Source: a phage. From it: 64,000 bases of DNA. The DNA is taken from the sequence record OZ335962.1, one strand, 5' to 3'. The position numbers were made by a program, and so were the translations under genes. Below the pieces are notes generated by a model. That model saw only the letters and a list, made by a program, of their open reading frames with translations. It searched no databases and was not told the origin of the DNA. Each line of letters opens with the position of its first letter. Within the stretch, counting starts at the first letter, position 1. Positions 45,744-46,571 of this stretch are shown in pieces.

Positions 45744-45819
45744 TGGTCGAGGCAGTAGGGATCGAACCTACGACCCAGGACTTAGAAGGTCCTTGCTCTT
45801 CCTTCTGAGCTATGCCTCG
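45744..45819 (-). tRNA. tRNA-Arg (anticodon UCU)
   Basis: 76-nt cloverleaf folded by eye: anticodon loop CTTCTAA, T-loop TTCGATC, CCA encoded. Confidence 0.9.
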
Positions 45820-45823
45820 GATT

Positions 45824-45898
45824 TGGCGGACGTGATAGGATTCGAACCTATAACCAATCGCTTAACAGGCGATCGCTCTGCCATTGAGCTACACATCC
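45824..45898 (-). tRNA. tRNA-Asn (anticodon GUU)
   Basis: 75-nt cloverleaf: acceptor GGATGTG/CACGTCC, anticodon stem ATCGC/GCGAT, loop CTGTTAA, T-loop TTCGAAT, CCA encoded. Confidence 0.8.
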
Positions 45899-45902
45899 AA
45901 AT

Positions 45903-45989
45903 TGGTGGGGAGTGATGGAGTCGAACCACCCGAGTCGCAATGACAATGGATTTACAGTCCACACCGCTACCTCTACGGGATAACTCCCC
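45903..45989 (-). tRNA. tRNA-Tyr (anticodon GUA), class II
   Basis: 87 nt: acceptor GGGGAGT/ACTCCCC, anticodon loop CTGTAAA, long variable arm, T-loop TTCGACT, CCA encoded. Confidence 0.75.
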
Positions 45990-45998
45990 AAATTAATT

Positions 45999-46073
45999 TG
46001 GTGGCCCTGGGTGGAATTGAACCACCATCTGGCGATTATGAGTCGCTTGCTTGAACCTTCCAGCTACAGGGCC
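45999..46073 (-). tRNA. tRNA-Ile (anticodon CAU, AUA-reading type)
   Basis: Matches recalled T4 tRNA-Ile (GGCCCTGTAGCTGGAAGG...CTCATAATCG...). Confidence 0.9.
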
Positions 46074-46074
46074 T

Positions 46075-46150
46075 TGGTGCTGATTGACGGAATCGAACCG
46101 CCGACCTTCTCATTACAAGTGAGTTGCTCTACCTACTGAGCTAAATCAGC
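46075..46150 (-). tRNA. tRNA-Thr (anticodon UGU)
   Basis: Matches recalled T4 tRNA-Thr (GCTGATTTAGCTCAGTAGG...). Confidence 0.92.
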
Positions 46151-46155
46151 AAAAC

Positions 46156-46245
46156 TGGCGGAGGCGATAGGATTTGAACCTATGAGTCGCCGGAGCGACT
46201 GCCGGTTTTCAAGACCGGTGCATTAAACCACTCTGCCACGCCTCC
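46156..46245 (-). tRNA. tRNA-Ser (anticodon UGA), class II
   Basis: 90 nt with long variable arm; anticodon loop CTTGAAA. Confidence 0.88.
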
Positions 46246-46247
46246 AG

Positions 46248-46321
46248 TCTCCATACAAGGATTTGAACCTTGGACCTCCTGATCCCAAATCAGGCGCTCT
46301 ACCAAACTGAGCTACACGGAG
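46248..46321 (-). tRNA. tRNA-Pro (anticodon UGG)
   Basis: Matches recalled T4 tRNA-Pro; anticodon loop TTTGGGA; 3' CCA not encoded. Confidence 0.88.
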
Positions 46322-46331
46322 TAAATTAAAT

Positions 46332-46405
46332 TGGAGCGGATAATGAGAATCGAACTCACATCATCAGATTGGAAGTCTGAGGTAATACCATTATACGATA
46401 TCCGC
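46332..46405 (-). tRNA. tRNA-Gly (anticodon UCC)
   Basis: Matches recalled T4 tRNA-Gly (GCGGATATCGTATAATGG...). Confidence 0.92.
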
Positions 46406-46410
46406 AAATT

Positions 46411-46497
46411 TGGTGCGAGAAGTGGGACTCGAACCCACAAGGAAATCATTCCGCAGCATTTTAAGTGCTGTGCCTTTACCAATTTGACCATTCTCGC
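46411..46497 (-). tRNA. tRNA-Leu (anticodon UAA), class II
   Basis: Matches recalled T4 tRNA-Leu (GCGAGAATGGTCAAATTGG...). Confidence 0.92.
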
Positions 46498-46498
46498 G

Positions 46499-46571
46499 CT
46501 GGGAATAAAGGACTCGAACCTTTGCATCCTGGAATCAAAATCCAGTGCCTTACCAACTTGGCTAATTCCCA
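46499..46571 (-). tRNA. tRNA-Gln (anticodon UUG)
   Basis: Cloverleaf with anticodon loop TTTTGAT; abuts tRNA-Leu as a dimeric precursor; CCA not fully encoded. Confidence 0.88.

Follow-up and report, generated by a model that had tools for sequence, protein, structure and literature searches.

The 64,000-nucleotide (nt) phage sequence analysed here (record OZ335962.1, henceforth the window) carries ten tRNA genes packed on its minus strand at positions 45744–46571. Taking the evidence together, we consider it highly probable that this locus is a T2-type tRNA cluster of a T-even phage (Tequatrovirus), combining codon supply, a reserve against host defences, and a target site of the homing endonuclease SegB. 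A first-pass annotation made from the sequence alone had read the genes for tRNA-Tyr(GUA) and tRNA-Asn(GUU) as extras added to the T4 layout within an otherwise T4-identical backbone. We find instead that these two genes belong to a T2-type cassette that replaces the Ile-segB-Arg segment of T4, and that the flanks are 84–96% identical to those of T4, with open reading frames (ORFs) of 116 and 171 amino acids (aa) that T4 lacks. The eight-tRNA set of T4 thus appears as a minority state linked to a homing endonuclease, not as the reference to which other phages add. The ten-tRNA arrangement is already known, being annotated in hundreds of T4-like genomes, and a 2008 paper described the T2-type cassette and showed that SegB targets it (PMC2330249); the anti-defence role of a T-even tRNA-Tyr was shown experimentally in 2026 (PMC13096335).

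A T2-type cassette in a T4-like cluster

Applied to the whole window, ARAGORN calls exactly ten tRNA genes, all in the cluster, in the transcription order Gln(UUG), Leu(UAA), Gly(UCC), Pro(UGG), Ser(UGA), Thr(UGU), a tRNA with anticodon CAU, Tyr(GUA), Asn(GUU), and Arg(UCU). The coordinates and anticodons proposed in the first-pass annotation, those of Tyr and Asn included, are thereby reproduced. Adjoining genes are separated by 0–10 nt, and nine of the ten, all except Tyr, score 59–74 bits with the Rfam tRNA model (RF00005; gathering threshold 29). In T4, the layout is Gln, Leu, Gly, Pro, Ser, Thr, Ile, segB, Arg, rnaD, rnaC (NC_000866 annotation), in agreement with the eight-tRNA complement without Tyr and Asn given in the first-pass annotation.

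Homology between the window and T4 stops at ∼46054, in the 5′ part of the CAU gene, and resumes at 45377, the start of the rnaD homologue. Between these points T4 has Ile-segB-Arg, and the window has tRNA-Ile2 (anticodon CAU; 45999–46073, labelled Met(CAT) by ARAGORN), tRNA-Tyr(GUA) (45903–45989), tRNA-Asn(GUU) (45824–45898), tRNA-Arg(UCU) (45744–45819), and a 116-aa ORF (45377–45727), all on the minus strand; T4 has no counterpart of the Tyr and Asn genes. This order, Ile2(CAU)-Tyr-Asn-Arg-‘trna.2’ ORF, without segB and lying between the shared tRNAs and rnaD, is that of the T2-type cassette. The T2 genome (AP018813) runs Gln, Leu, Gly, Pro, Ser, a 133-aa ORF, CAU, Tyr, Asn, Arg, and the 116-aa ORF. 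It shares Ile2, Asn, and Arg genes of identical sequence with the window, and its Tyr gene is 1 nt off; T2 also has the same 116-aa ‘trna.2’ ORF, the same 171-aa ORF upstream of Gln, the same preferred SegB site inside tRNA-Asn, and no segB. It differs in having the 133-aa ORF (‘trna.1’) where the window has tRNA-Thr, so that it carries nine tRNAs against ten, and in the anticodon arm of tRNA-Gln. T6 is further removed: it has Thr, a T4-type Ile, and Tyr followed by segB, and lacks Asn, Pro, and Ser. The alignments with T2, T6, and RB phages that the first-pass annotation had proposed thus place the Tyr-Asn pair in T2 and in RB27 (KM607000; 100% identical to the window) and a closely similar tRNA-Tyr in T6 (85/87 identical, 2 nt off).

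The commonness of the two cassettes was gauged from counts of BLAST matches. Searched by megablast in a set of 50,697 phage records, the cluster matched 881 of them, 386 with at least 80% query coverage; the best matches are 99.9–99.5% identical (BW-1, Sfk20, PE37, and others), and most annotate the same ten tRNAs. For BW-1 (OR125554), Sfk20, and PE37, the 921-bp (base pair) cluster is 99.6–99.9% identical, with the same ten genes annotated. At the same minimum coverage of at least 80%, the Tyr-Asn pair is matched in 396 phage records, among them a 2.4-kb record of T2L (AJ880101) annotated with ‘tRNAY (GUA)’ and ‘tRNA-Asn (GUU)’, and the T4 Ile-segB-Arg segment in 126. These counts argue that the eight-tRNA layout of T4 is the minority state in the collection searched, the T2-type cassette being about three times commoner. 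By sequence, we place the window as one more member of the ten-tRNA Tequatrovirus group formed by BW-1, RB27, Shigella phage Sfk20, and PE37.

Two phages extend the series. In UGKSEcP2, a tRNA-His(GUG) gene (725–800) with a 113-bp spacer separates Asn from Arg and brings the number of tRNAs to eleven, and 11B_SA_NWU (726–1476) has the same eleven plus a gene for a SegB-like endonuclease between His and Arg. The latter protein has 207 aa and a C-terminus identical to that of T4 SegB; the T4-SegB site in the tRNA-Asn of the same phage is intact. The tRNAs that vary in the slot between Thr and rnaD are Tyr, Asn, and His, all with G34-U35 anticodons. Such anticodons form the queuosine family and are also the target set of colicin E5.

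Genes shared with T4 and their differences

Likeness to T4 covers genomic position, anticodon order, the Leu, Gly, Pro, and Ser genes, which are identical apart from CCA ends, and the stretch of rnaD and rnaC, which is 90% identical; T4 differs by its segB, by the absence of Tyr, Asn, and the two ORFs of 116 and 171 aa, and by another anticodon arm in tRNA-Gln. The genes before the cassette, each called by ARAGORN and Rfam on the minus strand, are tRNA-Gln(UUG) (46498–46571; 67.4 bits), the class II tRNA-Leu(UAA) (46411–46497; 87/87 identical to T4), tRNA-Gly(UCC) (46332–46405; 74/74), tRNA-Pro(UGG) (46247–46321; identical to T4), the class II tRNA-Ser(UGA) (46156–46245), and tRNA-Thr(UGU) (46075–46150; 73/76). 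A 3′ CCA is encoded in eight of the ten cluster tRNAs and is lacking in Gln and Pro; Ser and Ile2 have it, unlike their T4 counterparts, and therefore the phage of the window should lean less than T4 on host CCA addition for these two tRNAs.

The earlier statement that eight of the tRNAs match the T4 set in T4 order thus stands for the order of anticodons and fails for the sequences of Ile2 and Arg and for the anticodon arm of Gln. The CAU tRNA shows 61% identity with T4 tRNA-Ile against 76% with E. coli ileX; for the tRNA-Arg(UCU), which scores with RF00005 like its neighbours, the figures are 50% with T4 tRNA-Arg and 68% with E. coli argU. In both cases agreement with the T4 gene is limited to universally conserved tRNA positions, which argues that the window's CAU and UCU tRNAs are different genes from the Ile and Arg of T4, and that the whole cassette differs rather than two genes having been added. 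The CAU tRNA shares with ileX the 15-nt anticodon arm GCGACUCAUAAUCGC and the pairs C4-G69 and C5-G68. These pairs are determinants for the lysidine synthase TilS. With such an arm and acceptor stem, the molecule should be a tRNA-Ile2 that reads AUA as isoleucine after lysidine modification, not a tRNA-Met, and the isoleucine assignment of the first-pass annotation holds despite the ARAGORN label.

tRNA-Gln equals the T4 and T6 gene except in its anticodon arm, which diverges at 9 of 17 nt (CUGGA-UUUUGAU-UCCAG in the window, UAGCA-CUUUGAC-UGCUA in T4 and T6); the entire stem is swapped with pairing retained, and positions 32 and 38 of the loop are U in the window instead of C. One allele occurs in T4, T6, and T2, the other in the window, UGKSEcP2, and 11B_SA_NWU. 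The swap could be a short gene-conversion patch or reflect selection on the anticodon arm. Both tRNA-Gln and tRNA-Asn occur as two alleles that differ in the anticodon arm.

The tRNA-Tyr and tRNA-Asn genes

The first-pass annotation described both genes as folding into clean cloverleaves, which is sound for Asn and overstated for Tyr, with its poor energy-only fold and a C-C mismatch in the D stem as drawn by ARAGORN. In Rfam, the only listed match of tRNA-Tyr is to tRNA-Sec, at 34.4 bits, below that family's threshold of 47; its RF00005 score is masked by clan competition and is necessarily <34.4 bits. Energy-only folding gave z = −0.9 and no clean cloverleaf for Tyr, and z = −2.0, a weak signal, for Asn. 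As a test of cloverleaf structure it was uninformative for the former and weak for the latter, and comparative analysis was used instead.

When IMG/VR was scanned for exact matches to a pattern taken from the window tRNA-Tyr (anticodon loop, T arm, and variable arm), 72 viral contigs with 19 distinct tRNA-Tyr sequences were retrieved. Judged by neighbouring tRNAs, these come from T4-like, T5-like, rV5-like, and SSU5-like phages, and GenBank matches from the same families agree. Aligned with the window, T2, and T6 copies (20 distinct sequences in all), they show five pairs changed on both sides in the acceptor and anticodon stems (28 cells), or 5–6 pairs and 28–32 cells when the D stem is counted too. 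The observed covariation score was reached by 0/500 shuffles, and every slid control gave at most 5 cells; the T arm and variable arm, being fixed by the search pattern, are uninformative on covariation. In its canonical register the D stem has 65% of cells paired, and the C-C mismatch is universal among the 20 sequences. A register shifted to 3 bp (CCG with CGG) is paired in 20/20, with one compensatory change from C-G to U-A, which argues that the D arm of this phage tRNA-Tyr family is non-standard but conserved, and not decayed. The shifted register leaves a link of 4–5 nt between the acceptor and D stems.

The remaining features of tRNA-Tyr are regular. The gene has U33, an acceptor stem paired throughout, and an encoded CCA, and all class II features can be read: the GUA anticodon, the long variable arm, and discriminator A73. 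These three are identity elements for tyrosyl-tRNA synthetase (TyrRS). The anticodon loop is identical to that of E. coli tyrT, with 62% identity over the whole gene; the variable arm GUC-AUUGC-GAC is the same in every phage copy examined, with a loop that exceeds those of E. coli tyrT and tyrV by 2 nt. For tRNA-Asn, the Rfam score of 74.1 bits is the best of the cluster. This gene likewise has U33, a fully paired acceptor stem, and an encoded CCA, together with anticodon GUU, discriminator G73, and the anticodon loop CUGUUAA of E. coli asnT (62% identity over the whole gene); the T loops of both genes read TTCGACT or TTCGAAT. A second tRNA-Asn allele, found in Shigella phage TB004 and Mosigvirus AV112, differs from that of the window by five compensatory pair changes, identified by eye, in the anticodon and T stems. 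Covariation in Tyr and compensatory changes in Asn argue that both are real tRNA genes.

The non-standard D arm of tRNA-Tyr depresses predictor scores; ARAGORN overlooks some variants, and RefSeq flags the copy of the T5-like phage VSe12 as a pseudogene. These calls, the sub-threshold tRNA-Sec match as the sole Rfam signal, the D-stem mismatch, and the lack of a clean energy-only cloverleaf are what would be expected if the gene were decayed or non-functional. We give that reading only a very low probability and reject it on the strength of covariation and published experiments: the odd D arm is kept in all 20 variants with its shifted register paired, the T6 copy is visible on northern blots and rescues infection, and the T5 tRNA-Tyr rescues from retron-Eco7.

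One tRNA-Tyr gene is spread over very different enterobacterial phages. E. coli plasmids of ∼110 kb that resemble SSU5-type phage-plasmids carry Asn-Tyr-Thr(-Ser) clusters (35 of the 72 IMG/VR loci); in plasmid pEC881_2 (109 kb; 2954–3200), tRNA-Tyr is 95% identical to that of the window, and the Asn and Thr genes are unrelated in sequence. An anticodon change between the window tRNA-Asn and a phage-plasmid tRNA-Thr was considered and rejected: that similarity is only the generic one among tRNAs, and true homology lies in the flanked tRNA-Tyr.

The predicted SegB target site

Brok-Volchanskaya et al. (2008) sequenced the tRNA regions of T2L, RB1, and RB3, all without segB, and reported that T4 SegB cleaves at the 3′ ends of tRNA genes, with tRNA-Asn preferred in T2L (PMC2330249). 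In their crosses of T4 with T2L, 99.6% of progeny inherit segB and lose ∼1250 bp of T2L DNA comprising the Met(CAU), Tyr, Asn, and Arg genes and two ORFs (PMC2330249). We reconstructed the site from the text of that paper as 27 bp starting with GGTTCRANTCC and ending around CCAR, the Asn site differing from the Ser site at G6, A16, G18, A26, and A27 (PMC2330249); all five differences were verified against the Ser and Asn genes of the window. The reconstructed sequence, GGTTCGAATCCTATCACGTCCGCCAAA, has a single and exact match in the window, at 45822–45848 on the minus strand, where the tRNA-Asn gene has its 3′ end, and it occurs in 0/100 shuffles. It is also present in T2, BW-1, UGKSEcP2, and 11B_SA_NWU, and absent from the T4 and T6 loci. 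A tblastn search of the window with T4 SegB found no homologue (best E = 0.99). An intact site without a segB homologue in the window marks the locus as a textbook recipient allele for SegB homing, with a predicted cut site; in a mixed infection with a segB phage such as T4, SegB would cut the window's tRNA-Asn gene and repair would install the T4 cassette.

The tRNA-Asn of TB004 and AV112 has no perfect SegB site, its middle reading ATGCAT instead of TATCAC.

Codon use and probable codon supply

Codon tables were compiled with the same crude greedy ORF caller for the window (84 ORFs, 17,597 codons) and for 50 kb of E. coli K-12 (43 ORFs, 14,896 codons). Relative to E. coli, Tyr is used 1.88 times as often (rank 1 of 20 amino acids), Lys ranks second, and Asn, at 1.51 times, ranks third; AAU (3.1×) and UAU (2.7×) are among the eight most enriched codons. 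Of the ten codons with the strongest enrichment, cluster tRNAs read seven, or eight if AAU and UAU are counted; the enriched codons read are AGA, AUA, UCA, AAU, ACA, GGA, UAU, and UUA. Plus-strand ORFs, which include the large ORFs at 52750–60386 (presumed late structural genes), are richer still in Tyr and Asn (54 and 66 per thousand) and also in AUA and AGA. The first-pass annotation had suggested codon-usage adaptation and a check on late genes, and both point the same way: Tyr and Asn are over-used, more so in the plus-strand, presumed late genes, a pattern that suits the classical idea of tRNA supplementation.

Possible back-up against host defences

Chihara et al. (2026) reported that Septu (PtuAB) of E. 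coli B88 cleaves the variable arm of tRNA-Tyr during T6 infection, that overexpression of T6 tRNA-Tyr restores plating under Septu, and that T6 without its tRNA region is more sensitive; T6 escapers amplify a 718-bp Tyr-segB unit in a SegB-dependent manner, and T4, which has no tRNA-Tyr, is unable to escape (PMC13096335). The T5 tRNA-Tyr rescues phages from retron-Eco7 (PMC11555353). The window tRNA-Tyr is a close relative of these experimentally validated counter-defence tRNAs: it has the same variable arm as that cut by Septu in T6, and it shares both sequence family and variable arm with the tRNA-Tyr of T5 and T5-like phages. It differs from the T6 case in that SegB-driven tandem amplification is not open to the window phage alone, which has no segB homologue. 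With T5 it shares the principle of a phage copy topping up a tRNA destroyed by host defence, and differs in that T5 has a near-complete tRNA set, tRNA-Lys included. By analogy, the tRNA-Tyr of window-type phages probably lowers sensitivity to tRNA-Tyr nucleases of the Septu or retron type, which is relevant to the choice or engineering of T-even phages for hosts with such defences.

For tRNA-Asn, the pertinent system is PARIS. Its nuclease AriB depletes the Lys(UUU) and Thr(UGU) tRNAs of E. coli and, with lower efficiency, tRNA-Asn(GUU); it cuts between positions 40 and 41 of the anticodon stem, beside a UAAU motif (U36-A-A-U39-C40|N41), and has His(GUG) and Pro(UGG) among its targets as well (PMC12409363). 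T5 tRNA-Asn contributes to rescue from PARIS, and T4 needs T5 tRNA-Lys for rescue (PMC12409363). Around the motif, the window tRNA-Asn reads UAAGC|G, with G39, E. coli asnT reads UAAUC|C, and the TB004/AV112 allele reads UAAUC|A. The window sequence is compatible with evasion of AriB, and the two phage alleles may differ in how sensitive their DNA is to SegB and their RNA to AriB. The UAAUC|A of TB004 and AV112 is the exact motif that AriB cuts in tRNA-Lys.

The earlier suggestion that the extra genes replace host tRNAs hit by anticodon nucleases is right in that the T6 tRNA-Tyr counters a defence system, and only close as to the enzymes known so far, which cut tRNA-Tyr in the variable arm and tRNA-Asn at positions 40/41 of the anticodon stem and so are not classical anticodon nucleases.

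Proposed function and alternatives

The T4 tRNA cluster is transcribed into precursors that host RNases process, and the genes of the window would, by analogy, be expressed in the same way. Host TyrRS would be expected to charge tRNA-Tyr through A73, GUA, and the long variable arm, and asparaginyl-tRNA synthetase (AsnRS) to charge tRNA-Asn through G73 and GUU. The two tRNAs would enlarge the pool reading UAU/UAC and AAU/AAC, codons heavily used by this AT-rich phage and most of all in late structural genes; the same surplus could serve as a reserve when defences destroy host tRNA-Tyr (PtuAB of Septu or retron-Eco7) or tRNA-Asn (AriB of PARIS). We hold that both roles apply, codon supply as the general one and defence back-up as a conditional one demonstrated only for the tRNA-Tyr orthologue. 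Several observations weigh against this combined explanation. On laboratory hosts, T-even phages can do without their tRNA region (PMC2330249), and T4 thrives without Tyr and Asn tRNAs. Septu also cleaves the T6 tRNA-Tyr, a single copy of which gives partial protection (PMC13096335); therefore any protection would work by dosage and not by resistance. T2 is Septu-resistant (PMC13096335), possibly for reasons other than its tRNA-Tyr. T-even phages lack tRNA-Lys, the main AriB target, and a defence role of their tRNA-Asn is extrapolated from the study of T5 tRNA-Asn and AriB. Codon usage was estimated with a crude ORF caller and against only one 50-kb sample of E. coli; moreover, Lys (AAA) is over-used as much as Tyr, yet the cluster has no tRNA-Lys, and sister phages add tRNA-His though His is under-used (0.69×). 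Codon demand alone therefore fails to predict the tRNA set.

That last point bears directly on the possibility, which we consider real but on the whole unlikely, that the Tyr and Asn tRNAs solely match AT-rich coding sequence and that defence effects are incidental. The Tyr and Asn demand excess is among the largest and greater in late structural genes, UAU and AAU are highly enriched, nearly all cluster tRNAs read enriched codons, and the anticodon loops equal those of the host with no hint of evasion there, all as codon supply would have it. Yet besides the mismatch for Lys and His, an anti-Septu effect has been measured for the T6 orthologue, and the occurrence of tRNA-Tyr with an identical variable arm at 85–95% identity in the unrelated T5-like, rV5-like, and SSU5-like phage families points to selection on the molecule itself. 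The opposite extreme, in which the slot from Ile2 to Arg is a counter-defence island and the codon match a side effect of AT-richness, has in its favour the T6 tRNA-Tyr experiments, the presence in T-even clusters of tRNAs for all of Thr, Asn, His, and Pro among AriB targets, and the G39 of the window tRNA-Asn where the host has U39 in the UAAU motif beside the 40|41 cut. We judge it improbable given the strength of the codon match, the cleavage of the T6 tRNA-Tyr itself, the absence of a tRNA-Lys to complete an anti-PARIS set (T4 needs that of T5 for rescue), and the restoration of UAAUC|A in the TB004/AV112 allele.

Less probable still is that the Tyr and Asn genes are passengers, persisting through exchange of cassettes by homing endonucleases and recombination with little benefit to the phage. 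The slot is indeed a recombination hot spot, in which T4, T6, T2, the window, the His variant, and the SegB-like variant all differ, SegB homing swaps the cassette wholesale, and the region is non-essential in the laboratory. However, compensatory changes keep the Tyr and Asn stems paired, as under purifying selection on function, and SegB removes rather than spreads these genes, yet their cassette is in the majority by the record counts given above. A more speculative proposal, unlikely in our estimate though not negligible, is that the slot from tRNA-Thr to rnaD is a fast-evolving island of counter-defence tRNAs, with the Asn and Gln alleles as escape variants, and that SegB, with its best site in the window-type Asn allele, deletes it, making the conflict a three-way one. 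On this proposal, Tyr, Asn, and the His of sister phages may be kept because host nucleases destroy their host counterparts, and the odd D arm and longer variable loop of tRNA-Tyr may be adaptations altering nuclease recognition. If true, selfish erosion of the island by SegB would explain T4 as a sensitive outlier.

Neighbouring genes and RNAs

Downstream of the tRNAs lie the small ORF of the cassette, the rnaD and rnaC homologues, and a terminator-like hairpin. A gap of 16 nt separates tRNA-Arg from the start of the 116-aa ORF, whose end coincides with the beginning of the rnaD homologue. It corresponds to the ‘trna.2 ORF’ of T2L, as the 2008 primers for that ORF fall within it (#24 exactly, #25 with one mismatch), and it moves together with the T2-type cassette. 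Searches of Pfam, PADLOC, and PDB sequences gave no match, and PHROGs gave only phrog_3355, of unknown function. Among 5.8 billion proteins there are seven close homologues, all apparently from T4-like phages (Tevenvirinae). An AlphaFold model, made from a shallow alignment, has pLDDT 67.5, and a Foldseek search of this model against PDB returned nothing below E = 0.47.

On the other side of the cluster, directly upstream of tRNA-Gln, is the 171-aa ORF (46658–47173, minus strand; phrog_2290, unknown function). An ORF of the same size occupies the same position in T2, BW-1, and UGKSEcP2, and there is none in T4, T6, or 11B_SA_NWU; in T4, only 97 bp separate tRNA-Gln from trna.2. A scan for promoter consensus sequences around the cluster found sites no more numerous than in shuffled sequence, and none was assigned.

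The hairpin (45047–45070, minus strand), a 10-bp stem with 7 G-C pairs followed by TTTTT, is also kept in T4 and is likely the end of the transcription unit of tRNAs and stable RNAs. Between it and the 116-aa ORF, blastn against the annotated T4 genes places the homologues of rnaD (stable ‘species 2’ RNA; approximately 45266–45380) and rnaC (stable ‘species 1’ RNA; approximately 45121–45259), both on the minus strand. The rnaD homologue contains a ∼45-nt block (roughly 45290–45335) completely different from T4, and the rnaC homologue contains a tRNA-like T-arm motif, GGTTCGAATCC.

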